Source: Candidatus Electronema aureum (GTDB lineage: Bacteria; Desulfobacterota; Desulfobulbia; Desulfobulbales; Desulfobulbaceae). Taken from it: 22,726 nt of DNA. Location of the stretch: the NCBI GenBank assembly GCA_004284765.1, contig NQJD01000039.1, positions 1 to 22,726 of the forward strand, in the 5' to 3' direction. The notes below the pieces were generated by a model. That model was not told the origin of the DNA. It searched no databases and saw nothing but the letters and a program-made list of their open reading frames with translations. The position numbers and the translations under genes are program-made. Shown one piece after another: positions 1 through 21,465 of this stretch (the first letter of the stretch is position 1; each line of letters opens with the position of its first letter).

Positions 1-476
1 ACCCTGGTCGTGGCAGATGAAGGCACGTGGACGGTGAATGCAACAACAGGCGCGATCACCTTCACCCCGGAATCAGGCTTCACCGGCGACCCGACACCGA
101 TCACCTACACCGGCGAAGACGTGCAGGGCAATGTCTCCAATCCGGCGACAGTGACCTTGAACACCAACCCGGTGGCGAGCGACGACACGGACAGCTATAC
201 TCCGACTGTTGCCAAGACGGTGGACGTTCTGGCGAACGACACCGCCGGCGACAAGATCGTGGCGGCCACGGTGAAGATCACCACCGCAGGCGCGGCGGCG
301 GACGGCAAGACCCTGGTCGTGGCAGATGAAGGCACGTGGACGGTGAATGCAACAACAGGCGCGATCACCTTCACCCCGGAATCAGGCTTCACCGGCGACC
401 CGACACCGATCACCTACACCGGCGAAGATGCGCAGGGCAATGTCTCCAATCCGGCGACAGTGACCTTGAGTCATAC
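1..476 (+). repeat. Near-identical intragenic direct repeat. Units are 1-167 and 310-476, with a period of 309 bp (103 codons).
   Basis: The string accctggtcgtggcagatgaaggcacgtggacggtgaatgcaacaacagg... is present at nt 1 and nt 310. Only a few substitutions are visible (e.g. gaagacgtgcag vs gaagatgcgcag). Similarity ends at accttgaac / accttgagt. Confidence 0.9.
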
Positions 477-3027
477 CACTCCGACCTACGCACTGATTAG
501 CTCCTTCAAGGCGTATGTCAATGGGGACAAACAGACCGTGCTGGAATGGAAAACGGATAGCGAAGTTGGCACCATCGGTTTTCTGCTCGAAAGGTTAAAT
601 GAGCAAAGTGGCGAATATGAGTCGGTGACTCAAGACATGCTTCCGGGTATGCTTACCCCACCGCATGGTGGCACCTACCGCTTTGTTGACAAAGCGGCAA
701 TATCCGGTAAAAGCTATACATACCGAGTGATTGAAGTTGCGGTCAACAGTGAGGGTACGATTTCTGGGCCATACACAGTTCAGGCCAAGCAGCAGTTGCC
801 AGTCAACCAAGCTATGTTTGCTGACGGCCCGGAAGGATTCACCTTAGCCCAAGAGCGTCTCTCTACCAAGCAAGTACAACGCGTTGCGGTACGAGAGCAA
901 GCAGAGCAAAGTTTCTCTGCACAAGTAAAGAAAAAAACCGGTAAGGTATTGAGAATACCCGTGAGTAAAACCGGACTGGTTTCACTGACTGCTGATCAGA
1001 TCGTCGCAGCATCTGGCCTGAAGAAACAGCAGATTGTGCAAAATCTGAAGGCCAAAAAATGTTTGGTGACGTTACAGGGAAAACGAATTCCTACCCTGTT
1101 TGCCAGCGAAGGCGGTGCGCTTTGGTTCTATGGCCAAGCTCCGGCCAGAAACGATATCGGGCAGAACATCTACCGGCTTGAAATAGGTATGCAAGGTTCT
1201 GTGATGAAAGTAAATCCGCAATCAGATAACGACAGCGGTCACATCTACAGCGAGCAGTCTTTTGCTGACCGAGTAAAGGCTGAAGAAAATCATCTGCCTT
1301 TCCATCTCTATATCAACAAACCTGTGAAAGATTTCTGGGCTTGGGAATATTTGCTGGCCTCAGGAAAAGATTTTACGGTGACTCATTCCCTTGCCGCACC
1401 GAACATGTCAGGCAGTGGCAGTGCGGCAGTTGCGGTTAATCTGGTAAATATCTCCAGCCGCAATTTAGGGACTTCAGCGCCGTATAAGGTGACGATTTTC
1501 TTGAATGGTACTGATATCGGTGGAGCGGAAACCACTGCAACCGGAGATTGGCAAATCAGGAAAGAAGTGCCGGTGAGCTTGCTCCGAGAAAGCGGTAATG
1601 AGGTAAAAATTGTCTCGCAGCTGAACAGTGGGGTATCCTACTCATTGATTTATCTTGAATCCATTGAGCTGGAGTACCTGCGGAAATATCAAGCCGTGCA
1701 AGGCGAGCTGACTTTCAAGAGCGGCCATTCTAACCAAGTGACTGTAGAAGGCTTCAGCAGCGATACTGTGCTTGCACTTGATGTAACCAATCCTGATAAA
1801 CCGGTGCGGATGCGTCCGACGATTCGCCAAACGGAGTCTGGTAGCTATGCAGTGATGGTTCAGACAAAACCCAACAGCAGCTATTTCATCACCGAGAAAA
1901 CAGCGGCGACAGTGTCGCAAACAATGACCGTTGACACGCCTTCTCAGTTGCGCAGCGGCAAAAATCGGGCCGATTATCTCTTGATCGCACCGCTGCACCT
2001 GATCGACTCAGCTAAACGGCTAGCAGAACGCCGTCAGAGCCAAGGTTTGACCAGCATGGTTGTTGATATTCAAGATGTACAAGATGAATTCAGCTATGGC
2101 TTGGCGGCACCGGAGGCTGTGCATGATTTCTTGGCCTATGTGCATCAAAAATGGGAACAGGCTCCTCGTTATGTGGTACTGGTCGGAGACGGCTCCTATG
2201 ACTACCGCAATCATCTTGGCTACGGCTGGCCGCTGATACCCAGCGTGTTGGTCGCCACGCCGGAAGGTTTCTTCCCCAGTGACAACGCCTTGGCGGACGT
2301 GGTTGGCAATGACGGTCTGCCAGAATTCGCTGTAGGCAGAATTCCAGTATTTGACAAAGCTGAATTTGAGCAGTACATTGACAAAGTAATCAGCTACGAA
2401 CAGTCTGTTCATAACGGTGTCCAGAAGATAGCGGTTGTGAACGACAAGACTGACAAGGCGGCTGGTGATTTTAAAGCCAGTGCCAACTTAGTGGCCGGGT
2501 TGATGCCGGAGCAGGTTGCTGTTACTCGTTTGGATGTTGATACGCTGGGATATAGTGCTGCGGCTGACCAGATCAAAACAGCCATGCAGCAGGGAGTCGG
2601 CATACTCCATTACATCGGACACAGTTCCTTGATTGGACTTGGCAAAAGCAACTCGCTGCTGTCAGCAAGCAAGATTGATACGATGAATCCAGTCGGCCCA
2701 GCTATGCTGATGGTCAGCATGAGCTGCTCGGCAGCTAGTTTCGGTTATCCGGCCATGAATAGCATTGGCGAAAGCGCAGTGTTGCGGGCAGAAGGTGGAG
2801 CAGTCGGTTTCTTTGGCGCAACAGGTTTGTCTCTGAATCCGTTAGCCGACATCGTGACAGAAGGTTTCTATCGTAGTCTGTTTAAACCAGTAAGTCCTCG
2901 TGTCGGTGATGCAGTGCTTGAGAGTAAACGGCATTATCTACAGGTTAAGCAAGGAAGAGATGCTTATACCCTTGATATTTACAACCTGCTTGGTGATCCC
3001 GCTGTGCAGATGCCGACTCATCAGTAA
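1..3027 (+). CDS. Large surface/secreted protein, 5'-truncated by the window edge. It has tandem ~103-aa adhesin-type repeats, an Ig/FN3-like region and a C-terminal peptidase C25 (gingipain-like) domain.
   Basis: The frame is open to nt 1: codons 1-9 (TLV) continue the repeat seen again at 310. The repeat [39 protein letters not shown](V/A)[12 protein letters not shown] occurs twice, and the spacer has the cadherin/VCBS-like motif DVLANDT. The C-terminal part (YLLIAPLHL...[15 protein letters not shown]...LHYIGHSS...MSCSAASFG...LLGDPAV) resembles the C25 fold with His and Cys in the expected contexts. Stop is at 3025-3027. Confidence 0.75.
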
Positions 3028-3103: not shown

Positions 3104-3406
3104 ATGAATGTACAGTCCACAGATGTATTCCGCCGTGCAGACAACATCGTCACCCGTAAGGTGATGGATGAAACCCTGTTGGTACCTGTTTCTGGCGAGC
3201 TGGCTTCAATGGATAATCTGTACACCTTGAATGAGACTGGAGCTTTCATCTGGCAGGCAATCGACGGCACTCGCAGCTTGGCCGAAGTCGGCAAAATGCT
3301 GGAGGATCGGTATGATGCTCCGACAGAGGTGATTGAAGCAGATATGTTGGAGATTGTCAGTGGACTATCAGAAGCTGGTCTGATTATGCCTGTTACCAAT
3401 GCATAA
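3104..3406 (+). CDS. PqqD-family protein, a RiPP recognition element (peptide chaperone).
   Basis: The ~100-aa size fits the family. The pattern is typical of PqqD/RRE proteins: VTRKVMDETLLVPV...LYTLNETGAFIWQAIDGTRSLAEVGKMLEDRYDAP...IEADMLEIVSGLSEAGLI. It lies immediately upstream of a small peptide ORF and a radical SAM gene. An SD-like aaaaggtgaaaagag precedes the ATG. Confidence 0.85.
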   Translation: MNVQSTDVFRRADNIVTRKVMDETLLVPVSGELASMDNLYTLNETGAFIWQAIDGTRSLAEVGKMLEDRYDAPTEVIEADMLEIVSGLSEAGLIMPVTNA

Positions 3407-3423
3407 AAAGAGGGGGAAGAGTC

Positions 3424-3582
3424 ATGCAGAAGAAGGAAGTACAGCAGCCAGAGACGGAGCAAAACAAACGGCATTACGAAAAGCCTTCTTTGTCTGCTGT
3501 TCGGTTGTTTGCAGATATGGTTTTGCAGGTGTGCGGAAATGATACGTGCGGCCCGCCGTATCCTGATATGAGTCCAAGTTGA
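3424..3582 (+). CDS. Candidate RiPP precursor peptide 1 (52 aa).
   Basis: It is absent from the ORF track because it is under 60 aa. ATG 3424 is preceded by the purine-rich SD-like agagggggaagag. It has 52 codons, and the TGA at 3580-3582 overlaps the TTG at 3579. Translation: MQKKEVQQPETEQNKRHYEKPSLSAVRLFADMVLQVCGNDTCGPPYPDMSPS. It shares a collinear motif, Y-E-x-P-x-L-x4-LFAD-x-VL, with the peptide at 4770. It sits between the PqqD and rSAM genes. Confidence 0.7.
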   Translation: MQKKEVQQPETEQNKRHYEKPSLSAVRLFADMVLQVCGNDTCGPPYPDMSPS

Positions 3583-3593
3583 TTATAAATTTA

Positions 3594-4757
3594 ATGAAAA
3601 AGAAATCAGATACGGAATCTTCAGATTGTCTTGGCGGCGAACCAAACGATATCGCTCGTTATATTGCCAAGGCAGCAGAAGTTCGTGTTCCGCTGGCGGT
3701 TTCGTTTGAGCTAACCCGACGATGTAGTTTTCGTTGTGTTCACTGTTATCTTGGTGATCAGGAATCGATCCGTAAACACCGGCAGCAAGAGATGGATACT
3801 ACGTCAATCATCAAACTGATTGATGAAATGGCATCAGCAGGTGTTCTGTTTCTGACGGTGACCGGTGGTGATCCGATGATCCACCCTGATTTCTTAGAAA
3901 TTTATCGTTATGCAGTTCGCAGTGGCTTATTGGTGACAGTCTTCTGCAACGGCTCGCTGATCACCGATGAAATTGTTAGCACGTTCATTCAATACCCGCC
4001 AAGAGCGGTAGAAGTGACGTTGTATGGGGCAAGCCAAGCAACTTTTGAGGCAGTGACGCAACAGCTTGGTTCCTTTGCTGCTTGCATGGCAGGTGTGGAG
4101 AGGTTACGACAGGGTAAGGTACGGTTGCGGCTAAAAACGATGGTGTTGACGTTGAATCAAGCTGATCTACCGGTTCTTTGGCAGCGCGCTGAGGCAATCG
4201 ATGTGCAATTTCGGCATGACTGCTCGATCATCCCGGCTTTGGCCAACGGCGATAACGGTAGTCACAGCAATGCCGGAGATAATCTGCACGACACATTGCG
4301 CTTCCGGCTTGCGCCGGAGCAGGCGGCAGCGGCTGATTTGAGTATCACCCAAGTGAGAGAAAAATTACAGGAACGGGTTTGCATGGCTGCCCCGACAGAG
4401 ACAGGACAACCGTCAAGCAAACTCTACCGCTGCGGCGCAGGCCGGTCATCTTGTCACATTACGCCGTATGGAAAAATGCAGCCCTGCCTGATCACCCTCC
4501 AGCCTTCTTTTGACATTACCGCAGGCAAGGAAGCGTTTCAGGCAGCTTGGCAGAGCATCAGCAGGCTGATTCCTGAGCAGGAAGCGGGAGCGGGTTTCTC
4601 CTGCAACCGCTGCAAGGACAGATCGCTCTGCACGGGTTGTCCAAGCAATTTTTCAGCAGAAACAGGCAACGCGGAACAGGCTGCGGATTTTTATTGCCAG
4701 TATGCCGCCAGCCGCAGAGAAAAATCCGCAAGCCACGAAGCGGCAGTATCATCATAA
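3594..4757 (+). CDS. Radical SAM enzyme with a C-terminal SPASM-type auxiliary Fe-S domain (peptide-modifying maturase).
   Basis: CSFRCVHCY matches the CxxxCxxC radical SAM motif, and VTGGDPMIHPDF is GGE-like. The C-terminal cysteine clusters YRCGAGRSSCHITPYGKMQPC and FSCNRCKDRSLCTGCP are typical of SPASM domains. The start is ambiguous: ATG 3594 (MKKKSD) or TTG 3579, which overlaps the precursor stop. Confidence 0.9.
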   Translation: MKKKSDTESSDCLGGEPNDIARYIAKAAEVRVPLAVSFELTRRCSFRCVHCYLGDQESIRKHRQQEMDTTSIIKLIDEMASAGVLFLTVTGGDPMIHPDFLEIYRYAVRSGLLVTVFCNGSLITDEIVSTFIQYPPRAVEVTLYGASQATFEAVTQQLGSFAACMAGVERLRQGKVRLRLKTMVLTLNQADLPVLWQRAEAIDVQFRHDCSIIPALANGDNGSHSNAGDNLHDTLRFRLAPEQAAAADLSITQVREKLQERVCMAAPTETGQPSSKLYRCGAGRSSCHITPYGKMQPCLITLQPSFDITAGKEAFQAAWQSISRLIPEQEAGAGFSCNRCKDRSLCTGCPSNFSAETGNAEQAADFYCQYAASRREKSASHEAAVSS

Positions 4758-4769
4758 CCAAGGGAAAAA

Positions 4770-4937
4770 ATGATGAAAGAATTGAACAGTAATGTTGAGT
4801 TAAGCAAAGGTAAAGGCGAGAAGGTGCCTTACGAAAGTCCTCAACTCAAAGTAATCAAATTATTTGCTGATCAAGTGTTAGGTGGTAGCTGCTTCGGCTC
4901 AGTGGTGGATTGCGGCGGTTCTAAGGATCTTAGTTAA
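4770..4937 (+). CDS. Candidate RiPP precursor peptide 2 (55 aa), a paralog of the peptide at 3424.
   Basis: It is absent from the ORF track. The ATG at 4770 has an SD-like aagggaa just upstream. It has 55 codons and ends at TAA 4935-4937. Translation: MMKELNSNVELSKGKGEKVPYESPQLKVIKLFADQVLGGSCFGSVVDCGGSKDLS. The leader motif and its spacing match peptide 1 (Y to LFAD = 10 residues in both). It has two Cys and a C-terminal Ser. Confidence 0.7.
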   Translation: MMKELNSNVELSKGKGEKVPYESPQLKVIKLFADQVLGGSCFGSVVDCGGSKDLS

Positions 4938-4983
4938 CCAGCTCACTCAAGAAGATAACCTGAACGTGTATCGACAAATAGAT

Positions 4984-5856
4984 ATGCTATTAGGTGGTTT
5001 TTCCATTAAAATAATGGATGACAGTAATATTCCATGCAAGCAACATCACTTGGTAGATGTTTTTTCATGTCCCGTTAAAAAGAAAAATGTTCTTTGTCAG
5101 GCTATAGAGCTTTCGCTTAAGGAGCTGATGCAAATCAACTTTCCTGCCAGCGAGAGGAATATATTATATGCAGACTGTAGGGTGACTCTCTGTAGAACAG
5201 AAACAGATTCATTCAGGCTTTTATGCCTGAATGAATCTGGAAATGACACATTGTGGAATCTAAATTTTGATTCAAATTTTTCTCAATTTGAATACGGCCT
5301 TTCCCACGAAGCAATAGAACAGGGCGACCTTATTCAATTAGCTTTTAATCGGTTTCTTCTTCAGCATACCTTCATCAATCACCACGGCCTGATCATTCAC
5401 GCCGCAGGTGGTTCTATTCACGGCAAGGGCATGGTCTTTCCCGCCGTCTCCGGCACTGGCAAATCAACACTCAGCCATCTGCTGCTGCCGCATCCTGAAA
5501 ATCAGCTTTTCAGCGAAGAGCGGATCATCATGCGCCGGACGGATGACGGTTGGCATTTGTGGGGCACTCCGTGGAAAGGAACCGGCGTGATCGCCCGCAA
5601 TGAATCAGCACCGCTGAATGCCTTAGTTTTTCTCAGTCAGGCCCCGGAAACAAAAATCTCAAAACTGCCGCCCTCCGCCGCCCTCCGCCGTCTGCTGGAG
5701 ACGGTCTCCATTCCTTGGTACAGTCAAGAGTGGACCGACAAGGGCCTATCCGTCTGCGAATCCCTGCTGCGCGACATTCCTGTATTTGAGCTGGCATTCC
5801 GTCCTGATCAAACTGCGGTGCAAGCCGTGGCTGATTTAGCTGCTTCATTAGACTGA
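4984..5856 (+). CDS. HPr kinase/phosphorylase C-terminal-domain-like P-loop protein (putative peptide Ser kinase).
   Basis: HAAGGSIHGKGMVFPAVSGTGKSTLSHLL resembles the HprK P-loop region (G-x-S-G-x-G-K-S). The ORF-track start (GTG 4882) would overlap the precursor-2 gene. The first ATG after that gene's stop is 4984, but the true start is uncertain. Confidence 0.7.
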   Translation: MLLGGFSIKIMDDSNIPCKQHHLVDVFSCPVKKKNVLCQAIELSLKELMQINFPASERNILYADCRVTLCRTETDSFRLLCLNESGNDTLWNLNFDSNFSQFEYGLSHEAIEQGDLIQLAFNRFLLQHTFINHHGLIIHAAGGSIHGKGMVFPAVSGTGKSTLSHLLLPHPENQLFSEERIIMRRTDDGWHLWGTPWKGTGVIARNESAPLNALVFLSQAPETKISKLPPSAALRRLLETVSIPWYSQEWTDKGLSVCESLLRDIPVFELAFRPDQTAVQAVADLAASLD

Positions 5857-5873
5857 GCGAGCATTCGAGGTCG

Positions 5874-6356
5874 ATGAGCCACTCGGTTATCGGTATTCGC
5901 GAACCCGGCGCATTAGATTTAGTGCAGTCCCTACTTCGGCAGGGTTTTAGTGTTCACATCCGAGTTTCTGGTGACTCCATGAAGCCGCTGCTTCGGGGTG
6001 GTGAGCTTGTTGAAGTGGCACCTTTAAGAGATGCCCGTCCCAAACTTGGCGATATTCTTTTTGTCCGCAGTCGTCAAAACACTCCGCTTGTCCATCGCTT
6101 AATTTGGCGACGTAACCAAAACGGCATTTCTCACCTATTGACCAAGGGTGATGCCTGTGCAGGTTTTGACGGTTTTATTCCTGCGAACAAGGTGATAGGC
6201 CGCGTTGATCGGATTATAATTGCCGATCAAAAATCAATCAGCCTGCAAGTACCGCTGATGCGGCTACGAGCTGTTTTGTCTGTCAGCCGTGTTTTACTTG
6301 CTCATGCTTGGCGCAAATTGAACGCCTATAAAAAAGAATACCCGCCGAGTATATAA
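5874..6356 (+). CDS. S24/S26-family serine peptidase (signal-peptidase-I/LexA-like fold). It is a putative leader peptidase.
   Basis: SGDSMKPLLRGGELVEV matches the catalytic-Ser motif G-x-S-M-x-P of S24/S26 peptidases. A downstream LLTKGDA supplies a candidate general-base Lys. SD gagg lies at 5867-5870. The gene is 17 nt after the preceding gene. Confidence 0.7.
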   Translation: MSHSVIGIREPGALDLVQSLLRQGFSVHIRVSGDSMKPLLRGGELVEVAPLRDARPKLGDILFVRSRQNTPLVHRLIWRRNQNGISHLLTKGDACAGFDGFIPANKVIGRVDRIIIADQKSISLQVPLMRLRAVLSVSRVLLAHAWRKLNAYKKEYPPSI

Positions 6357-6433: not shown

Positions 6434-7825
6434 ATGAAAAATCAAGCTGAATGCCACTTTTCTTGGCTTGTAGCCATTCTGTTCGCTGCGCTTTCCATTT
6501 TTCATCCTCTGACGGTGAAAGCGCAGGTGTCGTCCGGTACCATAACAGGCACCGTGACGACTGTAGATACAGTTCCTCTGGCAAGTCTGGCGGTGGGTGT
6601 GTACCGTGCTGATGATGAAAGTACTCGGCTGAAAGCCGTACGGACAAACACTGCGGGTATTTTTACGCTGACGGGTCTGCCAGCGGGTAATTATAAAATA
6701 AAATTCTTCACTACTGGTATTAATTATGTCGGAGGATGGTATAAGCAAAATACTTCCCCTCCAGCCTCAGCGGTAGCCACATTTGGCGAAGGTAATATCA
6801 TTACGCTGACCTCAACAGCCGGAGCTGATGTAGGGGAGACACGACTTGATCTCGGTTTGCAGATCAAAGGAAAAGTGAATGATACCTCCTCGCCAAGTAA
6901 TCCTATTGCTGGAGTCTATGTTCAGGCATATCGCAACGGAGTTTGGGAAAGAACTTCTGATGCTGCCACCATCATTGCTGATGGCTCATACATCATTAGC
7001 GGCCTGAGAGCAGGTGACTACACCATACGTTTTTGGGCGTATCAAACCAGCTATACTACGGAATGGTATTCTTCAACTACTCCAACAAACACTGTTCCTG
7101 ATGCTACCAGTGCTGCTTCTGTGGCGGCAGGGAGTATTAACATAAACGCCCAGCTATCTACAGGCGGTAACATTCTTGGCACGGTTTACGATAAGACAGG
7201 GACGGTACCTGTTGTCGGCGCATTAGTGACTGTTTATGATAATGTATCTCCTTACACGTTTAGAGGCTTCACCACCACGTTAGCAACAGGCACATACACA
7301 GTGCGAGGTCTTCCTCTTACAGGAAATTATCTTGTCCAGTTTTATGAAAAATATGTCAATAACGTGGGGACGGGCCTAACTGAATGGTACAACGATAAGT
7401 CTGATAGGGCCAGTGCAGCGGCTGATTTTGGCAGTGTTGTTGTCATTAACCAAGCAACAGGATACATCGACAATATTAATGCTACGCTTGATCGTGGACC
7501 TATTTCTGGCAAGGTCACCTACAAGACAGGCTCGCCTGTCGTAGGCATGTTGATTAGTGTATATGACAGCAATCAAGTTTTGAAACTATCTACAACCACC
7601 GATACCAAAGGACAGTATATCACTGGGGAACTGCCCGCAGGAACTTATAAAGTGCAGTTTGGTACTGCCAGTTGGTATAATGGAAAAGATAATTTTAACG
7701 AGGCTAATGCAGTGCAGGCGGGAGCTGCTGGAATCAATGCTATCATAGAACAGCCGACACTCCTCTTCCATGTCTACAATATCCTCCTTATGAAAAAACA
7801 TTGCACGGCAGCTGATTGCCAATAA
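6434..7825 (+). CDS. Secreted protein with four carboxypeptidase-regulatory-like / Cna-B-like beta-sandwich repeats.
   Basis: The start at ATG 6434 gives a signal-peptide-like N-terminus (MKNQAECHFSWLVAILFAALSIFHPLTVKAQV). There are four ~100-aa repeats of the type G(T/K)V...G.PV.GA.V.VY......T...G.Y...GLPAG.Y.V.F....Y..EWY. The longer ORF-track start (6362) lacks any support. Confidence 0.7.
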   Translation: MKNQAECHFSWLVAILFAALSIFHPLTVKAQVSSGTITGTVTTVDTVPLASLAVGVYRADDESTRLKAVRTNTAGIFTLTGLPAGNYKIKFFTTGINYVGGWYKQNTSPPASAVATFGEGNIITLTSTAGADVGETRLDLGLQIKGKVNDTSSPSNPIAGVYVQAYRNGVWERTSDAATIIADGSYIISGLRAGDYTIRFWAYQTSYTTEWYSSTTPTNTVPDATSAASVAAGSININAQLSTGGNILGTVYDKTGTVPVVGALVTVYDNVSPYTFRGFTTTLATGTYTVRGLPLTGNYLVQFYEKYVNNVGTGLTEWYNDKSDRASAAADFGSVVVINQATGYIDNINATLDRGPISGKVTYKTGSPVVGMLISVYDSNQVLKLSTTTDTKGQYITGELPAGTYKVQFGTASWYNGKDNFNEANAVQAGAAGINAIIEQPTLLFHVYNILLMKKHCTAADCQ

Positions 7826-14803: not shown

Positions 14804-15925
14804 ATGGAAAATATTATGAGCCTTACAGAGCAGATCAATAAAAACTCAGCAACGGTAAAGACACAATCGTATTCAATGTCGCTGGGTGAAATGGCTGCGA
14901 TGTACCAAGCCGGTGAACTCGAACTGCACCCAGAATTTCAGCGTTTCTTTCGCTGGACACCTGAACAGAAGTCGCGGCTTATTGAGTCGATCCTGCTTGG
15001 CATTCCTGTGCCGCCCGTATTTGTGGCAGAAAGAAGGTTGGATGCAAAATGGGATGTGATTGACGGGCTGCAACGGCTTTCAACGATATTAGAACTCATG
15101 GGTGAACTTCAAGGAGAAGATGGCAACAAGAAAGAACCGTTGCAGCTCACGCGAACACATTATCTGCCTGATTTGGAGGGAATGTACTGGTCTCATGAAG
15201 ATGAAAGTAAATGCCTTCCAGAGTTTGCTCAGATAAAGATAAAACGTGCTCGTATTGATGTCAATATCGTCAGCAGTACAAGCGATGAGGTGGTGAAATA
15301 CGAAGTTTTTCAACGTTTGAACACAGGAGGCGCAAAGGCGACTGACCAAGAGGTGCGCAATTGTCTTCTTGTAATGATTAATAACAGCTACTTCAACTGG
15401 ATGAAAGGTCTAAGTGAAAATGAATCGTTTCAGAACACTCTCTCGCTGACGGATCGTGCGCTCGCTGAGGCTTTCGACATGGAACTTGTAGCTCGATATC
15501 TCGTCATGATTCAAAAAGAACCAGACAAACTCAAGAAAATCGATGAACTTGGAACGTATTTGAATGAGGAATGTATAGCGCAAGCGAAAGATTCAGCATT
15601 AGACAGGGATGCGATTGCAAAGAGCTTTTTTGAAACATTCACATTCCTTGCGAATGAGCTGAAAGAAAACGCTTTCCGCAGGTTTGATATGAAACGGCAG
15701 TGCTATAGCGGCCCGATGCTTGTTTCAATTTTTGAGGTTGTCGCTGTGGGATTGGGGCATCGGTTGTTGAATGGGGGAGCACTTCCTGACCAAGCCTCTT
15801 TTGCGGAAAAACATCGCTCGTTGTGGGACGAGCTTGGAAAAACATCATTTGTCGGATCGGGTGTGCGTTCCTCAACTCGGATACAAGAGACAATTCGCTT
15901 TGGGCGGGAGTGGATTGCACGGTGA
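14804..15925 (+). CDS. DUF262 (ParB/GmrSD N-terminal-like) domain protein without a DUF1524 nuclease domain.
   Basis: LHPEFQRFFRWTPEQKSRLIESILLGIPVPPVFVAE...WDVIDGLQRLSTILE matches the DUF262 signature (FQR..vW ... DGQQRLTT). VFQRLNTGGAKATDQEVRNCLL is also present. I see no H-x-x-P His-Me finger C-terminal domain. Confidence 0.85.
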   Translation: MENIMSLTEQINKNSATVKTQSYSMSLGEMAAMYQAGELELHPEFQRFFRWTPEQKSRLIESILLGIPVPPVFVAERRLDAKWDVIDGLQRLSTILELMGELQGEDGNKKEPLQLTRTHYLPDLEGMYWSHEDESKCLPEFAQIKIKRARIDVNIVSSTSDEVVKYEVFQRLNTGGAKATDQEVRNCLLVMINNSYFNWMKGLSENESFQNTLSLTDRALAEAFDMELVARYLVMIQKEPDKLKKIDELGTYLNEECIAQAKDSALDRDAIAKSFFETFTFLANELKENAFRRFDMKRQCYSGPMLVSIFEVVAVGLGHRLLNGGALPDQASFAEKHRSLWDELGKTSFVGSGVRSSTRIQETIRFGREWIAR

Positions 15926-16572
15926 AGATTCGAGCCGCACAGGAACTCATTAATTTCCTTAGCGAGAGAAAACAAAATCGTAAAAGGGAGCTGATATCGC
16001 TCTCGCAGGATTTATCGCCGCCAAAGGGCCATCCGACGGCGCATACATGCAAGGCCGCTGTCGTTCTTGCCTATGCTCACTGGGAAGGATTTGTGAAAGA
16101 GGCAGCTCAAGCCTATGTTAATCTTGTGGCCCATAAATCTAAAAGATTAGACGCATTGGCTCTCAGTTTCCAAGCTCTGGTGTTCCGTCAAGAACTACTT
16201 GCAGCCCAATCTGCAACCCGTCGGATACAACAGCATCTGTCCCTTACAAAACGTTTCACTGACGATATCACGTCAAGCTGCAAAATTGATCATGACAGAG
16301 CAATAGACACAGAATCGAATCTTAACGCTGAGGTCTTTGAAAACATCTGTCTATCTGTTGGACTGGACTATCAAACTTACTGGGCTGTGCACGGGCATCG
16401 AATGGATGATCTTGTAGCAAACCGTTGCGCAATCGCACACGGTGAAATGTCGACACCTGAAGATAAATATGCCAGAGAAGCAGTAAATTTCGTTATTAAG
16501 GCTATAGACCAATTCTCAACCGATATCGAAAACGCTGCCACGCTTGAGCAGTATCTCAGGAAAACGAGCTGA
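15922..16572 (+). CDS. HEPN-domain protein (RiboL-PSP / MAE_28990-like family), a putative RNase effector.
   Basis: The start GTG 15922 overlaps the DUF262 stop (gGTGA, 4-nt coupling). The protein is helical and carries the R-x4-H motif in VANRCAIAHGE near the C-terminus. Size (216 aa) and DUF262 adjacency fit that family as I recall it. The ORF-track start at 15823 is an in-gene overlap and is unlikely. Confidence 0.65.
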   Translation: MKIRAAQELINFLSERKQNRKRELISLSQDLSPPKGHPTAHTCKAAVVLAYAHWEGFVKEAAQAYVNLVAHKSKRLDALALSFQALVFRQELLAAQSATRRIQQHLSLTKRFTDDITSSCKIDHDRAIDTESNLNAEVFENICLSVGLDYQTYWAVHGHRMDDLVANRCAIAHGEMSTPEDKYAREAVNFVIKAIDQFSTDIENAATLEQYLRKTS

Positions 16573-16659
16573 ATTACGAGGATTATCATTGAGGAAGGCG
16601 AAGGCAGATTGGGGCTTGGCTGTTGGCCAAACTCCGCTTTCAATTCGCGGGCTGGAACA

Positions 16660-16896
16660 ATGAGAATCGCGCAAGTCACACCAAAGGAAAATGGATTGCT
16701 TCACATTGTTGCCGAAGACGGACGCAATGGTGTTTTTGATGTGCGGCCATATTTGAATTCTGAGGCGTTCAGGCCGCTGCAAGACTGGCATGAATTTTCC
16801 TGTATCATCAACGGCAGCTATTTTATTGAGTGGAAATGCGGAGCTGATCTGTCAGCAGACACCATTGAAGCTAAATGGCAAATATATGCCGCTTGA
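16660..16896 (+). CDS. DUF2442-family small protein.
   Basis: MRIAQVTPKENGLLHIVAEDGRNGVFDVRPYLNSEAF...FIEWKCGADLSADTI fits the ~80-aa DUF2442 pattern (v..v.p..d..L.v.f.dG....d......). ATG 16660 is preferred over the 16609 start. Confidence 0.6.
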   Translation: MRIAQVTPKENGLLHIVAEDGRNGVFDVRPYLNSEAFRPLQDWHEFSCIINGSYFIEWKCGADLSADTIEAKWQIYAA

Positions 16897-16905
16897 TTTG
16901 ATTGC

Positions 16906-17312
16906 GCTGCGGCAGCCGTCGGACAGATAAGCCATCCATCGTTCAGGCAGGCCGCGCAGTATTTCCTGCGCCTCGATGCAAACTTGCTGCATGGCGTTTC
17001 AGGCTTGGGATGCGGCATCTGCTGGACAGGCAAAGCAGCCGTATTGCAAATAAACCGCTTGAAATTTTCGCATCTCATGGTAAAAATGATGTGCGGCATT
17101 TCAAATATGCGACGCGGCAGCCGTCGTTCAGGCAGCTTATCTGTCTGACAGACGGGCCGCCGAAATTTCAGCGCAGCGGCGCAAACTTGCTTCAGGGCAT
17201 TCTCAGTTTGCAGCGCGGCATCTGTCGTTCCGATGCGCCGCCGGTCTTTCGGGCCAGCCGCCTGAAGCGCAGGTGCCGCGCCGCAACGCTGAACTGCCGC
17301 ATCTGACTATCC
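16906..17312. repeat. Diverged tandem duplication (2 units of ~203-205 bp) in a GC-rich non-coding spacer. It contains a 15-bp inverted repeat.
   Basis: Three anchors recur at a constant offset: gcggcagccgtcg (16909 and 17114), gcaaacttgct (16978 and 17181) and gcggcatctg (17012 and 17215). gtcggacagataagc (16918-16932) is the reverse complement (14 of 15) of gcttatctgtctgac (17135-17149). Confidence 0.75.
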
Positions 17313-17338
17313 CATCTTAACCGCAGAAGGAGCGCAGC

Positions 17339-17962
17339 ATGGCGACATTTCCTGTCCGCGAGGCGGACATCATGGCACTGGCGCAAAGCATCATCGCCGG
17401 GATGACGGAAAATCCAGATTATCCTTCGCCGCCGCTTTCGCCAACAGAGCTACGCGCCCGGCTGGATGCGTTCAGCGGATCAAGCGACGCGCAGGCATCG
17501 GCCCAGTCTGCGGCGCAGCAGGCCACGGAAACCAAGCGCACGGATTTGGAAGAGCTGATTGCGGGCATGAAGGCCGCCATGCTGCATTATGCCGAAGACG
17601 CGGTGCGCGGCAATGATGCCAAGCTGGCCGCTCTGGGCTGGAGCGGTCGCGCGCCCCGCACGCCGCATGTGCCGCAGCTGCCCGGCCAGCCGCGCAATGT
17701 CAGGGCGCAGCAGCAGGGCGAGGGCAGCATGACGCTGGCGTGGGATGAGGCTGAGAACGGCGACGCTGCTGCCTGTTACAAGGCCGAACGCCGCAGCCTG
17801 AACAACGGCGTGTGGAGCGCATGGCAGATCGTCGGCACAGCGGTCAGCACGAGCATCGCGCTGTCCGGCCAGCCGCGCGGCAACACGCTGGAATACCGCA
17901 TCATCGCCATCAACAACGCGGGCGAAAGCCTGCCGAGCAACACCGCGACGGCAGTGCTGTGA
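17339..17962 (+). CDS. Paralog P2: full-length helical N-domain plus a C-terminal fibronectin type III-like domain.
   Basis: The N-terminus FPVREADIMALAQSIIAGMTENPDYPSPPLSPTELRARLDAF is homologous to P1 and P3. The C-terminus PGQPRNVRAQQQGEGSMTLAWDEAENGDAAACYKAERRS...LEYRIIAINNAGESLPSN is a typical FN3 pattern. SD gaaggag lies upstream. Composition is GC-rich. Confidence 0.8.
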   Translation: MATFPVREADIMALAQSIIAGMTENPDYPSPPLSPTELRARLDAFSGSSDAQASAQSAAQQATETKRTDLEELIAGMKAAMLHYAEDAVRGNDAKLAALGWSGRAPRTPHVPQLPGQPRNVRAQQQGEGSMTLAWDEAENGDAAACYKAERRSLNNGVWSAWQIVGTAVSTSIALSGQPRGNTLEYRIIAINNAGESLPSNTATAVL

Positions 17963-18028
17963 ATTTTTGTGAATTTTTTCCGGCAGAAAAATTTGCAGTC
18001 GAATTATCTGCCCCCTTCTTTTTCGCAG

Positions 18029-18075
18029 AGCACGTGTGCTTTTGCATCTCAAACACACGTGTTTTCATTTTTTAA
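18029..18075 (+). terminator. Hairpin plus T-rich tail between P2 and the methyltransferase gene. It is a terminator or an operator.
   Basis: cacgtgtg (18031-18038) pairs with cacacgtg (18054-18061). The loop is cttttgcatctcaaa, followed by ttttcatttttt. Each arm contains the palindrome CACGTG. It lies inside the unsupported N-terminal extension of ORF 17969. Confidence 0.5.
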
Positions 18076-18088
18076 TTCATCGAGTATT

Positions 18089-18955
18089 ATGCCTTCCTGT
18101 TTAAACCCCATTGAAACATCTGATTCAACTATAAACAATCTCGATGAAAAAAGATGGAGCGTTTACAACGGAGATGCAGTTCAAGTTTTAAAAACTCTTC
18201 CAGATAATTCATATAATTGCATAGTCACTTCTCCGCCGTATTACTGGCTTCGAGATTATGGAACAGATGAGCAAATCGGAAAAGAAGATACTGTAGAGCA
18301 ATACATTTTTTCTGTATGCGCTGTTTTTGATGAAATTTATAGAGTAATGAAAGATGATGGATTAGTTTTTATCAATCTTGGCGACACCTATTATTCAGGA
18401 AAAGGACAATCTCATGGCGTTGACAAAAAGAGCAGAAAAAGACGCTTTGGCTTAAGAGCTGTTGATAAAAGCGGAGGGCTTGATATCGGGATTAAACCAA
18501 AATCATTGATAGGTATTCCTTGGAGAGTCGCTTTGGAAATGATGAAGCGAAATTGGACACTTCGGAGTTCAATTATTTGGTATCGTAAATATTCGCTTCC
18601 AGAATCGGTGAAGGATCGCCCGAAAAGAAGTTACGAACATATATTTATGTTCGTAAAAAATCGTAAATATTATTTTAATCAAAGTGCATTTGGTGCCGAT
18701 GAGCAAGGAGATGTGTGGACAATTGTTCCCCGGCCAAAATCGGCGCACTTGGGAACAGCACCGTATCCCGATGAGCTTGTGCAGCGATGTCTTGATATGG
18801 GTTGTCCGCCTGGCGGTTCGGTTTTAGATCCGTTCGCGGGCAGCGGCACAACCTTGCGTGTTGCTGTGCAGTCCGGTCGTTTTGCCACAGGGATTGATAA
18901 CAATCCAGAATTTTGTCAATTTATGTCTAGTGAATTGCAAAGGATTTCAAAATGA
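18089..18955 (+). CDS. DNA methyltransferase, beta-class N4-cytosine/N6-adenine (N6_N4_Mtase family).
   Basis: Motif IV is IVTSPPYY near the N-terminus, and motif I is VLDPFAGSGTT near the C-terminus. That is the circular permutation of beta-class amino-MTases. The start is taken at ATG 18089. The stop overlaps the next gene's ATG (ATGA at 18952-18955). Confidence 0.9.
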   Translation: MPSCLNPIETSDSTINNLDEKRWSVYNGDAVQVLKTLPDNSYNCIVTSPPYYWLRDYGTDEQIGKEDTVEQYIFSVCAVFDEIYRVMKDDGLVFINLGDTYYSGKGQSHGVDKKSRKRRFGLRAVDKSGGLDIGIKPKSLIGIPWRVALEMMKRNWTLRSSIIWYRKYSLPESVKDRPKRSYEHIFMFVKNRKYYFNQSAFGADEQGDVWTIVPRPKSAHLGTAPYPDELVQRCLDMGCPPGGSVLDPFAGSGTTLRVAVQSGRFATGIDNNPEFCQFMSSELQRISK

Positions 18956-20865
18956 AATCAATATATTTCAGTCAAGACATAATCCACCAGTCTTTGTCAA
19001 AATTAGAAAAAATCAATCCATTTTATGGCATCTGTTTTCTTGTCTTCAAGCAAGGGAATCTTCCTGTCGGTGAAGCCGTTAATTTTCCTGCTGATCGCAA
19101 CGATGATGAATTCCTGAAAAAATATTACCATCCAGACCAGCAGTCTAATCATTTTTTCAGAGTGTTCCGTGGGGCGGATAAAAAAAAGTATTGGCTGAGT
19201 CCTGATTATGCCTCAAGCGGACTTCAAGCTGTCAGAACGCAAACCTTCCGAGACACATTGCTGCATGAATCCGGCAGCACGCAATGGGGATGGAAAGACA
19301 ATTATTTAGCGGTACTGAAAGAAAAACCAAAAAAGCAATTATTGCCAGCTTTTTATATGGCTGTCTGGCTTTATCGTGAAGAGCCTTGGCAAGAAAATAG
19401 CACCTGCGAGGAAGTTGTCAGAAAGTTTTTTAGTGATTTCAATATTAACGAAAATGAACAAGGAGAACTTTTTGATGCTTCCGTCCCGCAGAATGTGCAG
19501 GACTGTTTTGCTGATGAACTTTTCTCGTGGCCGAAGTTAGTCAACGCACTTGGGATTCCAGACCCTCCAGATTCCCCGCCTGAAGAAGGGGCGATACTAT
19601 CTTCTTTGTCACTACAAGAAGTAGGGCCGGCTCATAGCCTTCAAATCAATTTAGCTGAGAGGGTGAATTTATTTACCGGCGACAATGGACTTGGAAAAAG
19701 TTTTCTGCTGGAGATTGCCTATTGGACAATAAGCGGCATCTGGCCAGGTTTTCAGGCGTATCCAAGGACAAATGCGGCTGAATCTGCCATCTCTTTCAAT
19801 CTGCTTGGACCATCTGGCAAAATTAAGGAGCACACATCAACGTATGACTGGACAAGGCAGCATTGGCAGCATAAAAAATCAATAAGGGCGGGCTTGCTGG
19901 TGTATGGCAGGGCAGATGGTGCTTTTGCTGTTTGGGATCCGGCAAAGGATTGTTGGCCGGACTCTGAAAAGAAAAAAATAATTTTTTCCAGGGAAGAGAT
20001 ATGGGAAGGTCTTCAAGATAAAACTGGTGGCAAGACAAGTTATGTGGCCAATGGATTAATTGCTGATTGGGTTCATTGGCAAAACAGTCCAGATAAAAGT
20101 GCCTTTGAAATCTTGCGAAATGTTTTGAAACGACTTTCTCCGCCTGATTTGACACGGGGAGACTTAGGGATTTTGGAACCCGGCCAGCCGGTCAGAATTT
20201 CGGGCGACAGCCGATGGATGCCCACCATAAAGCATCCGTATGGTGAAACACCATTAGCATATGCCTCTGCGGGTGTTCGCCGGATTGTTGCCTTGGCATA
20301 TATAATCGTTTGGGCCTGGCTGGAACACAAAGAACAATCAAAGTTGATGCACAGAAATCCGCAGAAAAGCATGATGATTCTCGTGGATGAAATCGAAGCG
20401 CATCTGCATCCAAAATGGCAGCGCAGAATTTTGCCTTCCCTGCTGGAGGTTCAGAAGGATTTGTCTTCCGAAGAGCTTCGGGTGCAATTGTTAGCCGTCA
20501 CGCATTCGCCGCTGGTCATGGCTTCCGCCGAGCCGTTTTTTGATTCTGAAAAGGATGCTTGGTTTGATCTTGATCTTGTTGAGAACGGCGATGATCAAGA
20601 TCACCTCGTGGCTTTAAGCAGACGGCCCCTACTCCGGCGGGGCGATGCCTCAAGCTGGCTGACCAGCGAGGCATTTGATATGGCCAGCGCACGGTCAGCG
20701 GAAGCGGAGCAAGTTCTTGAAGATGCGGCCATAGCCTTGAGCGACGAATCCTTTACTGCTGCTCAGGCAGGAAAGCTCGACGCAGAGCTGAGAAAGGTCT
20801 TGGGCGACACAGACCCGTTCTGGATGCGCTGGCGGTTCATTGCCGAGAAAAAAGGATGGCTTTGA
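18952..20865 (+). CDS. ABC/AAA_21-type ATPase (PtuA/Septu-like) with an uncharacterised ~200-aa N-terminal domain.
   Basis: Walker A is LFTGDNGLGKSFLLE (from nt 19678). Walker B is MMILVDEIEAHLHPKWQ, and the H-loop region is LLAVTHSPLV. The N-terminal 200 aa match nothing I recognise. A Pro-rich linker, PDPPDSPPEEG, separates the domains. Confidence 0.85.
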   Translation: MKSIYFSQDIIHQSLSKLEKINPFYGICFLVFKQGNLPVGEAVNFPADRNDDEFLKKYYHPDQQSNHFFRVFRGADKKKYWLSPDYASSGLQAVRTQTFRDTLLHESGSTQWGWKDNYLAVLKEKPKKQLLPAFYMAVWLYREEPWQENSTCEEVVRKFFSDFNINENEQGELFDASVPQNVQDCFADELFSWPKLVNALGIPDPPDSPPEEGAILSSLSLQEVGPAHSLQINLAERVNLFTGDNGLGKSFLLEIAYWTISGIWPGFQAYPRTNAAESAISFNLLGPSGKIKEHTSTYDWTRQHWQHKKSIRAGLLVYGRADGAFAVWDPAKDCWPDSEKKKIIFSREEIWEGLQDKTGGKTSYVANGLIADWVHWQNSPDKSAFEILRNVLKRLSPPDLTRGDLGILEPGQPVRISGDSRWMPTIKHPYGETPLAYASAGVRRIVALAYIIVWAWLEHKEQSKLMHRNPQKSMMILVDEIEAHLHPKWQRRILPSLLEVQKDLSSEELRVQLLAVTHSPLVMASAEPFFDSEKDAWFDLDLVENGDDQDHLVALSRRPLLRRGDASSWLTSEAFDMASARSAEAEQVLEDAAIALSDESFTAAQAGKLDAELRKVLGDTDPFWMRWRFIAEKKGWL

Positions 20866-21465
20866 ATGATTCCTGTGCTTGAACAGTCTGAACCGGCAGA
20901 CTTTGATGCGAAGGTGCGGCAGAAAGGGCTGGCGTTTCTGCGTAAGAAAGGCATCGCGCTGGATCAGCCTCTTCCGGACAAGGCTGATATTGCCCCGTAT
21001 TGGCGTGACTGTCTTGATGATTTGCATTCACTGTATCATGGCTGCTGCGCTTATCTCGCCATTTTCATCGAGCGTGTCACTGGAGACGCATCTGTTGATC
21101 ATTTCATAGCCAAATCTAAACAGGCTGATCTTGCGTATGAATGGAGCAATTATCGTCTTGCCTGCCTGACGATGAACAGCCGCAAGCGGAACTATGATGA
21201 TGTTCTTGATCCGTTCTCTGTCCAATCTGGCTGGTTTCATCTTGAATTAGTCAGCGGACGCATTTATCCGAATTCTAATTTGCCATCGAACACAAAGAAG
21301 CAGATAGAAGAAACGATCGAACGCCTGCATTTGGATGACGCAGGAAACAGAGAAATACGGTCTCGCCATTATTATGAATATGCTGCAAAAGGATACCCGA
21401 CTGACTATCTCAAAACAAGATCGCCATTTGTTTATACAGAAGCACTGCGGCAAGGTCTTTTGTAA
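20866..21465 (+). CDS. TIGR02646/PtuB-like HNH-type nuclease homolog with a degenerate zinc-cysteine set.
   Basis: The ATG immediately follows the ATPase stop (tgaATG). CCAYLAIFIERVTGDASVDHFIAKSKQADLAYEWSNYRLACLTMNSRKRNYD follows the family pattern C.YCE...(D/I)H..P......W.N...AC..CN..K. However, the second Cys of each pair is replaced (CAYL, CLTM). Confidence 0.65.
   Translation: MIPVLEQSEPADFDAKVRQKGLAFLRKKGIALDQPLPDKADIAPYWRDCLDDLHSLYHGCCAYLAIFIERVTGDASVDHFIAKSKQADLAYEWSNYRLACLTMNSRKRNYDDVLDPFSVQSGWFHLELVSGRIYPNSNLPSNTKKQIEETIERLHLDDAGNREIRSRHYYEYAAKGYPTDYLKTRSPFVYTEALRQGLL

Follow-up and report, generated by a model that had tools for sequence, protein, structure and literature searches.

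Do the two short peptides encoded by a compact gene cluster of the freshwater cable bacterium Candidatus Electronema aureum, both of which end in Ser next to a gene for a kinase-like protein, become phosphorylated at that terminal residue? Phosphorylation is rare in peptide natural products, being documented for some lasso peptides, cyanobactins and linear polyphosphorylated peptides (LPPs). The cluster lies on contig NQJD01000039.1, in a 22,726-nucleotide stretch of DNA which was analyzed as a whole and is hereafter called the window. Six closely spaced genes, all on the forward strand, occupy positions 3104-6356 and encode, in this order, a PqqD-family protein, precursor 1, a radical S-adenosylmethionine (SAM)/SPASM enzyme, precursor 2, a P-loop protein, and an S26-type peptidase. 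[quoted passage not shown] Homologies of the encoded enzymes and conservation of the terminal Ser identify phosphorylation of the C-terminal Ser by the ScmC/LppK-like P-loop protein as the best-supported mechanism, one that we consider rather probable, and the gene cluster points to an undescribed family of peptide natural products that are probably phosphorylated. The features of the cluster are as follows.

3104-3406, forward strand: discrete PqqD-family RiPP recognition element (RRE) (Pfam PqqD, E 2.7e-17)
3424-3582, forward strand: precursor 1, 52 aa, MQKKEVQQPETEQNKRHYEKPSLSAVRLFADMVLQVCGNDTCGPPYPDMSPS, ending in ...DMSPS, with the terminal Ser codon at 3577-3579
3594-4757, forward strand: radical SAM/SPASM peptide maturase with a CX3CX2C motif and a Cys-rich C-terminal region (Pfam Radical_SAM, E 2.7e-18)
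4770-4937, forward strand: precursor 2, 55 aa, MMKELNSNVELSKGKGEKVPYESPQLKVIKLFADQVLGGSCFGSVVDCGGSKDLS, ending in ...SKDLS, with the terminal Ser codon at 4932-4934
4984-5856, forward strand: ScmC-family (PF27840) P-loop protein with the fold of HPr kinase (HprK) and phosphoenolpyruvate carboxykinase (PEPCK), LppK-like; predicted peptide Ser kinase, from homology and an AlphaFold2 model
5398-5520, forward strand: predicted catalytic core of the same protein, with His139 (5398-5400), the Walker A motif AVSGTGKST (residues 154-162, 5443-5469), and SEER with Glu179 (5518-5520)
5874-6356, forward strand: signal-peptidase-I-like (S26) protein of the archaeal/endoplasmic reticulum type, 160 aa, LppS-like; predicted leader peptidase (NCBIfam sigpep_I_arch, TIGR02228, E 3.3e-12)

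Precursor peptides and conservation of the terminal serine

The two precursors, deposited as hypothetical proteins CDV28_1393 and CDV28_1395, are each preceded by a Shine-Dalgarno-like sequence and match no Pfam or NCBIfam model. The leader of precursor 1 carries YEKPSL, an instance of the YxxPxL RRE-binding motif, followed by LFAD, and that of precursor 2 carries YESPQL and LFAD, so that the two leaders share the pattern YE[KS]PxLxxxxLFADxVL. By contrast, the short cores are divergent, with exactly two Cys residues each. The first-pass annotation of this DNA had noted that both precursors end in Ser and that a kinase-like gene adjoins precursor 2; the coordinates and sequences that it gave hold, and, because the leaders, two-Cys cores and Ser ends of both precursors were confirmed, the observation is correct as written.

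Ser is the commonest core residue (13.9%) and two peptides would both end in it approximately 2% of the time, such that, for the window alone, the shared ending might be a coincidence. This possibility was examined with homologous precursors, including those from 15 species of cable bacteria, each represented by one genome. Because selection by eye was to be avoided, a hidden Markov model (HMM) of the precursors was built iteratively on the tails of all open reading frames (ORFs) with the last four residues removed. The search, blind to these four residues, yielded 68 distinct precursors, 61 of which end in Ser, including all 45 from outside cable bacteria and 16 of the 23 from cable bacteria. 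Among the first 27 homologous precursors, which had been collected by hand, 20 have a terminal Ser where core composition would predict 3.9; none of 200,000 composition-matched simulations reached 20/27, and positions −2 to −8 of the same precursors contain only 1-7 Ser each. The coincidence explanation is thereby refuted, its residual probability being negligible, and the earlier claims that the shared ending is not due to chance and that the terminal Ser is conserved among homologues both stand.

The two Cys and the terminal Ser are the only core features common across clades, with the cores being otherwise unalignable, and the terminal Ser is the sole hydroxyl residue conserved across the whole precursor family. 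The cleavage-type leader motif reads FAD in cable bacteria, FET in a large clade from soil and peat metagenomes (soil clade), and FED in locus L018. Core position 3, counted after LFAD or after FET of the soil clade, is Leu, and no Ser is conserved there.

The kinase-like protein is a relative of LppK

The gene for the kinase-like protein starts 46 nt past precursor 2. Its product is 100% identical to protein CDV28_1396 of the metagenome-assembled genome, the deposited model of which (324 aa) begins at GTG 4882 and runs, in a different frame, across the end of precursor 2. Since the homologues begin a few residues before a conserved LGG motif, ATG 4984 appears to be the better start. The assignment to Pfam family PF27840 (ScmC) is precomputed for the identical public protein (P0001) and for nearly all homologues. 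In our scan against Pfam-A, from which the PF27840 model was absent, the protein produced no match, including to Hpr_kinase_C (PF07475), which 3 of 26 relatives match weakly (E 0.03 or higher). A single-sequence phmmer search against the Protein Data Bank (PDB) returned noise only, and comparison with NCBIfam revealed weak local matches to HprK_rel_B, HprK_rel_A and ScmC.

More distant relationships were recovered at the level of profiles. The profile of 26 diverse family members matched the HPr kinase/phosphorylase (HprK/P) of L. casei and S. xylosus in PDB with E values of 1e-4 to 2.5e-4, pairing MHGV, GDSGVGKSE and ADDR of the L. casei enzyme with IHAAG, AVSGTGKST and SEER of the window protein, respectively. 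His139, Ser156, Gly159, Lys160 and Thr162 are invariant in the 26 members, and position 179, which aligns with the second Asp of the ADDR motif, is Asp or Glu in all of them. Consistently, the AlphaFold2 model of the protein (predicted local distance difference test score, 87.5) has PEPCKs dependent on adenosine triphosphate (ATP) and HprK/P as its top Foldseek matches in PDB; PEPCK and HprK/P are two families sharing the same P-loop fold. Thus, the HprK-type P-loop region attributed to this protein by the first-pass annotation is confirmed, and the catalytic residues, namely, His139, those of Walker A, and Asp/Glu179, are kept on alignment.

The closest characterized relative is LppK, the kinase of LPPs, with which the ScmC-like profile aligned in hhalign over 142 columns, covering the whole kinase domain (99.3% probability, E 4.6e-20). 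Matches to PbaK, from a paeninodin-type lasso cluster, and to BsfK, another lasso-cluster kinase, were obtained with 96% probability and E 4e-9 each. Within the ScmC family, the cable-bacterial kinase clade aligned full length with a Firmicutes clade (of the L024/L025 type) with a probability of 99.9%.

Sharing the P-loop fold and the His...GxSGxGKS...[DE][DE]R arrangement with HprK/P and ATP-dependent PEPCK, which are its top structural matches, the window protein nevertheless differs from HprK/P in the missing Hpr_kinase_C match, a different N-terminal domain, and an invariant Thr in place of HprK Glu163, and its predicted substrate is a leader-bearing peptide rather than HPr. Judged from its sequence, it appears to be a relative within the HprK fold rather than a member of the HPr kinase family. 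The same differences could be taken to mean that the protein is not a protein kinase but an ATPase or scaffold that aids the radical SAM enzyme or the peptidase, or a phosphorylase-type enzyme: sequence similarity to HprK/P and PEPCK is centered on the P-loop, the position of Glu163 is changed, and, to our knowledge, the TIGR04249 model description assigns no function to ScmC of the SynChlorMet (SCM) cassette, the namesake of PF27840. We regard this as very improbable, given that homology to LppK extends over the full domain and that the His and the acidic residue acting in HprK catalysis are both conserved. In Paenibacillus alginolyticus, deletion of lppK abolishes Ser phosphorylation, with the phosphates being located on core Ser3 (PMC13381572).

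The window contains one copy of the kinase gene, a further match on the minus strand being an antisense frame of the same gene. In a separate observation, protein P0094 carries a precursor-like N-terminus (...KKLPYERPQLGSIRLFADQVLGHCRFIAPCMPIAPIKS...) fused to kinase-like sequence, probably due to gene-calling or assembly read-through of the precursor stop.

Partner enzymes and the proposed pathway

The ORF of the radical SAM enzyme opens at TTG 3579, with ATG 3594 being the likely start. Its best NCBIfam matches are MftC, AhbD, NirJ2, sactipeptide maturases and PqqE, all far below cut-off, and the nearest solved structures are those of PqqE and SkfB. The enzyme class and the two invariant Cys of the precursors fit the installation of thioethers as in sactipeptides and ranthipeptides. 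The discrete PqqD-family protein displays weak matches to lasso-type PqqD chaperone models of NCBIfam. The S26-like protein is related to LppS, the leader peptidase of LPPs (hhalign 98.6%, E 1e-15): its Ser35, His74 and Asp93, all three unchanged across 6 homologues, are the counterparts of S29, H68 and D93, the catalytic residues of LppS (PMC13381572).

Combining these assignments, we propose that both precursors would bind the discrete PqqD-type RRE through the YxxPxL leader motif. The radical SAM/SPASM enzyme may then modify the two-Cys core, most likely by introducing thioether cross-links, and the ScmC/LppK-like kinase, using ATP, would phosphorylate the side-chain hydroxyl of the C-terminal Ser, possibly more than once. 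Finally, the LppS-like Ser/His/Asp enzyme is predicted to cleave off the leader; by comparison with LPP precursors, which have an F(−3) E(−2) T(−1) site, the cut would probably follow LFAD.

Which step needs the terminal serine?

The first-pass annotation had predicted phosphorylation of the C-terminal Ser. Homology of the kinase to LppK, PbaK and BsfK, the retained catalytic set, and the conserved Ser all favor this prediction, and we infer phosphorylation itself from them. Several observations weigh against it. LppK, the closest characterized relative, targets core Ser3, whereas the lasso kinases that use a C-terminal Ser are more distant (96% vs 99.3%), and the LppK, PbaK and BsfK sequences underlying these comparisons were rebuilt from the machine-read Supplementary Figure 23 of PMC13381572, with a few residues missing. 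No gene for a nucleoside triphosphate (NTP)-transferase or an exporter was found in the window, unlike in phosphorylating lasso and LPP clusters. Furthermore, the seven precursors without a terminal Ser, all from Electronema-type cable bacteria, have P, V, G, A, P, G and A as their last residues. Among them are precursors of Electronema JC, JM and halotolerans, with the ends ...SSTP, ...SSIG and ...GQSG. In 6 of the 7, 1-3 residues follow the last Ser, which is thus found at −2 to −4 (S-TP, S-V, S-IG, S-KNA, S-DP and S-G), and in three Electronema genomes (L001, L002 and L004) neither precursor ends in Ser, with the kinases being intact and highly conserved. The non-Ser-terminal precursors are located as follows.

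Locus L001, 3345-3560 and 4714-4887: two non-Ser-terminal precursors
Locus L002, 3043-3234 and 4372-4548: two non-Ser-terminal precursors
Locus L004, 3414-3605 and 4791-4967: two non-Ser-terminal precursors
Locus L007, 2693-2869: one non-Ser-terminal precursor

Such ends may be trimmed later at the C-terminus, the kinase may tolerate them, or Ser may no longer be required. Finally, the kinase and the radical SAM enzyme are both present in every locus examined, and co-occurrence therefore does not assign the terminal Ser to either of them.

The last two points also bear on a different explanation, namely, that the terminal Ser is needed by another step, be it the radical SAM/SPASM reaction, export or proteolysis, and that the kinase acts on another residue or substrate. 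The radical SAM enzyme could, for instance, perform chemistry on the C-terminal residue, as MftC does on the mycofactocin precursor, or use Ser as a thioether acceptor. MftC is indeed its best NCBIfam match (E 9e-32), although the score is far below cut-off (110 vs 265 bits), and the invariant Cys pair favors Cys-based cross-linking over C-terminal decarboxylation. Use of Ser3 by the closest characterized kinase, together with the highly variable C-termini of LPPs, and retention of the kinase in genomes the precursors of which have no terminal Ser are likewise compatible with this explanation. However, the kinase would find no further Ser or Thr shared by the clades to act on, and kinases of the same superfamily are documented as C-terminal-Ser-specific (PMC8498205). 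On balance, we consider it unlikely that the Ser serves another step.

A further alternative accepts phosphorylation of the terminal Ser but holds it to be transient, the phosphate being a leaving group, with formation of dehydroalanine and then an amide, or a handle, such that the mature product would not be a phosphopeptide. Elimination of phospho-Ser is established in class III/IV lanthipeptide synthetases, and in lasso and LPP systems an enzyme of the NTP-transferase family decorates the phosphate further, but neither a lyase nor an NTP_transf_5 gene was found in the window or in the syntenic cable-bacteria loci, rendering this scenario improbable. Phosphorylation of the C-terminal Ser by the ScmC/LppK-like kinase thus remains the reading that we favor.

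Comparison with known systems

LPPs are the products of lppAKBSDN of Paenibacillus alginolyticus (Popov et al., Nat Commun 2026, PMC13381572). The window cluster shares with this system a discrete PqqD-type RRE, an LppK-homologous kinase, and an LppS-homologous leader peptidase with the same Ser/His/Asp triad. Cleavage by LppS depends on the RRE and on F-3, E-2 and T-1 of the leader (PMC13381572); correspondingly, leaders of the window type carry YxxPx[LVF] followed by F-x-[D/T], with soil relatives displaying the literal FET. In Supplementary Data 2 of the LPP study, the HprK kinase genes of LPP and paeninodin clusters are annotated with TIGR04249, TIGR04352 and TIGR04355 and the signal peptidase I (SpI) genes with TIGR02228 (PMC13381572), and the window kinase and S26-like protein match these same models. 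Pairwise BLASTP of the window RRE against LppB gave no alignment. With the RRE, the LppK-like kinase and the LppS-like peptidase all encoded, the window cluster can be described as the LPP core trio plus a radical SAM maturase.

The differences are equally distinct. Unlike the LPP cluster, the window cluster encodes a radical SAM/SPASM maturase and precursors with two invariant core Cys, and lacks an NTP_transf_5 transferase and an MsbA-type exporter. The precursors have no Ser3 acceptor but an almost invariant C-terminal Ser, whereas the C-termini of LPPs are described as highly variable (PMC13381572). LPPs are further described as restricted to Bacillota (PMC13381572), whereas window-type clusters are found in Desulfobulbaceae cable bacteria, Acidobacteriota and soil metagenomes. 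Membership in the LPPs, as that study defines them, is rejected on these grounds: Ser3, the NTP transferase and the exporter are all missing, a radical SAM enzyme is added, and the host lies outside Bacillota.

Paeninodin-type lasso clusters, with the kinases PadeK, ThcoK, PbaK and PsmK, set the precedent: in them, phosphorylation of the side chain of a C-terminal Ser is documented for linear precursors. These precursors have little sequence in common apart from the C-terminal Ser, which is the only residue that the kinases phosphorylate (PMC8498205), and the window resembles the lasso clusters in that an HprK-like kinase is encoded next to a discrete RRE and the similarity between precursors is largely confined to the leader motif and the C-terminal Ser. 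It differs in the greater distance of its kinase (96% to PbaK), the Cys in the core, and the presence of a radical SAM enzyme. No Asn-synthase-like match corresponding to the lasso macrolactam cyclase (the Asn-synthetase-like C protein) was found among the window genes scanned, and the genes of the cluster include none for a B2 cysteine (transglutaminase-like) leader peptidase, their one peptidase of this role being S26/SpI-like. Lacking both the cyclase and the B2 peptidase, the cluster is not a lasso cluster. The first-pass annotation suggested that such phosphorylation would transfer the tailoring chemistry to a non-lasso scaffold; in part, LPPs had made this move already in 2026.

The SCM cassette (ScmC, TIGR04249; ScmD, TIGR04248; ScmE/F, TIGR04250/04251) also combines an ScmC-type protein with a PqqD homologue and radical SAM/SPASM enzymes, but has two radical SAM genes, against one in the window, which additionally has the S26-like peptidase and identified precursors. 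We know of no precursor assigned to the SCM cassette. With bit scores of 25.9 against an equivalog cut-off of 125 for ScmC, 22.3 against 100 for ScmD, and 68 and 64 against 400 for ScmF and ScmE, respectively, and with a single radical SAM gene, the window cluster is not an SCM cassette. Systems for sactipeptides and ranthipeptides with an RRE (for example, SkfB, AlbA and PapB) are similar in their RRE-dependent radical SAM/SPASM enzymes and short Cys-containing cores; we are not aware of an HprK-like kinase, or of a leader peptidase of the SpI type, in any characterized cluster of this kind.

As read from these comparisons, the window system combines, in the manner of a hybrid, the tailoring module of LPP/paeninodin clusters with a maturase of the sactipeptide/ranthipeptide type. 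Full-text literature searches on SynChlorMet, on cable bacteria with radical SAM, PqqD or HPr kinase, and on HPr kinase with radical SAM precursors retrieved no description of such a system or locus. What is new is the pairing of an LPP-type module with a radical SAM/SPASM maturase and two-Cys precursors, and the family-wide terminal Ser beside a radical SAM enzyme. If the proposed pathway is correct, an RRE-guided kinase and a signal-peptidase-type leader protease also serve radical SAM peptides, which would add thioether-type cross-links plus C-terminal phospho-Ser to the known combinations of modifications. The ScmC family would gain a function in radical SAM clusters, including the long-unexplained SynChlorMet-type cassettes, and the presence of ScmC beside a precursor with a YxxP leader, two Cys residues and a Ser end would become a mining rule, which dozens of uncharacterized soil, peat and Acidobacteriota clusters fit.

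Related loci in other bacteria

Related loci were searched for with narrower alignments, the diverse kinase alignment being too variable. Across the 15 cable-bacteria species, the gene order is peptidase C25, PqqD, (precursor), radical SAM, precursor, kinase, S26-like, and CarboxypepD_reg, with conserved leaders and hypervariable cores. The upstream flank is available for 13 of the 15 loci, with L006 containing the last approximately 50 residues of the C25 protein only and L009 beginning inside the kinase gene; the PqqD gene is kept in every locus that includes the region upstream of the kinase gene (13/15). Two variations on this arrangement were observed. In L007 (2693-5864), two precursor-plus-kinase units are arranged in tandem with an S26-like gene between them, and L011 (7202-10804) carries, downstream, one additional C25 gene and one additional CarboxypepD_reg gene, together with a second precursor that likewise has a Ser end.

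Outside cable bacteria, two Acidobacteriota genomes encode a radical SAM enzyme and ScmC with precursors ending in ...RSIGS and ...RAIGS. Locus L018 has the order PqqD, radical SAM, precursor, ScmC, S26-like, with the precursor ending in ...KVKVS, and L021 the order precursor, ScmC, radical SAM, with the precursor ending in ...SVFGS. A metagenome scan added 80 further loci, in which two clades are prominent: the large soil/peat clade, with the order precursor, S26-like, ScmC, PqqD, radical SAM, and a second clade with the order C25, PqqD, radical SAM, precursor, ScmC.

Precursors of the soil clade (L044-L105) follow the pattern KKPYxKPxF-RxExVF(E/V)T-xALxCGK-x8-9-C-x5-6-S, usually with Lys at −3 (K-x-S-COOH) and with a conserved Thr four residues before the second Cys (T-Q/E-x-x-C); the Lys and the Thr are candidate recognition or cross-link positions. 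The C25 gene also adjoins the ScmC/radical SAM cluster in a separate clade with precursors ending in ...GS (L030-L032, L038, L045 and the locus of P0089), the C25 match being directly upstream of PqqD/radical SAM in L030-L032, L038 and L045. In this clade, no S26-like peptidase was seen and the leaders are without the FET/FAD motif; the C25 protein may act as a leader peptidase in place of the S26-like one, or else be a functional partner. ScmC-family genes are also found in LPP-type arrangements with no radical SAM gene in view, namely, in L024 (3455-5233; Wzz/CpsD, ScmC, S26-like, ABC transporter) and L025 (183-2145; ScmC, PqqD, S26-like, NTP_transf_5). The L024 kinase (P0096) has more than 2000 relatives in public data, the few named ones being from Lachnospiraceae and Eubacteriales.

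Taken as a whole, and tentatively, the clusters may constitute an undescribed RiPP class of radical-SAM-cross-linked two-Cys peptides with a (poly)phosphorylated C-terminal Ser, in which the RRE, the kinase and the SpI-like peptidase were recruited from the lasso/LPP lineage, and which is widespread in soil and peat metagenomes, with a hint of an envelope-related rather than an antibiotic role. This hint stems from the syntenic locus being fixed beside genes for surface proteins (C25 and prealbumin-fold) in the 15 cable-bacteria species. Given its conservation in all of these species, the product may matter for the unusual envelope biology of cable bacteria.

Neighboring genes in the window

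The genes flanking the cluster on either side are conserved neighbors.

10-3027, forward strand: large surface-type protein, 1005 aa, containing repeats of the CshA type and, at the C-terminus, a peptidase C25 (PorU-like) domain (Pfam Peptidase_C25, E 6e-73)
6434-7825, forward strand: secreted protein with carboxypeptidase-regulatory-like (prealbumin-fold) repeats (Pfam CarboxypepD_reg, E 7.6e-31, 4 repeats)

The C25 protein matches the NCBIfam PorU-like model below cut-off, and its gene is the conserved upstream neighbor, being syntenic in 13/15 cable-bacteria loci, that is, those with the upstream flank. The CarboxypepD_reg protein has a signal-like sequence at its N-terminus and is encoded by the conserved downstream neighbor, which is likewise syntenic in cable bacteria; mnmG follows downstream. 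Three ORFs of the window are of at least 600 aa, encoding the C25 protein, MnmG and an AAA ATPase. Further downstream, positions 14804-21465 on the forward strand represent a probable defense island, unrelated to the peptide cluster, with genes for a GmrSD N-terminal domain, a RiboL-PSP-type HEPN, an fn3-containing protein, an N6/N4 DNA methylase, and an AAA_21/AAA_15 (AbiEii-like) ATPase.

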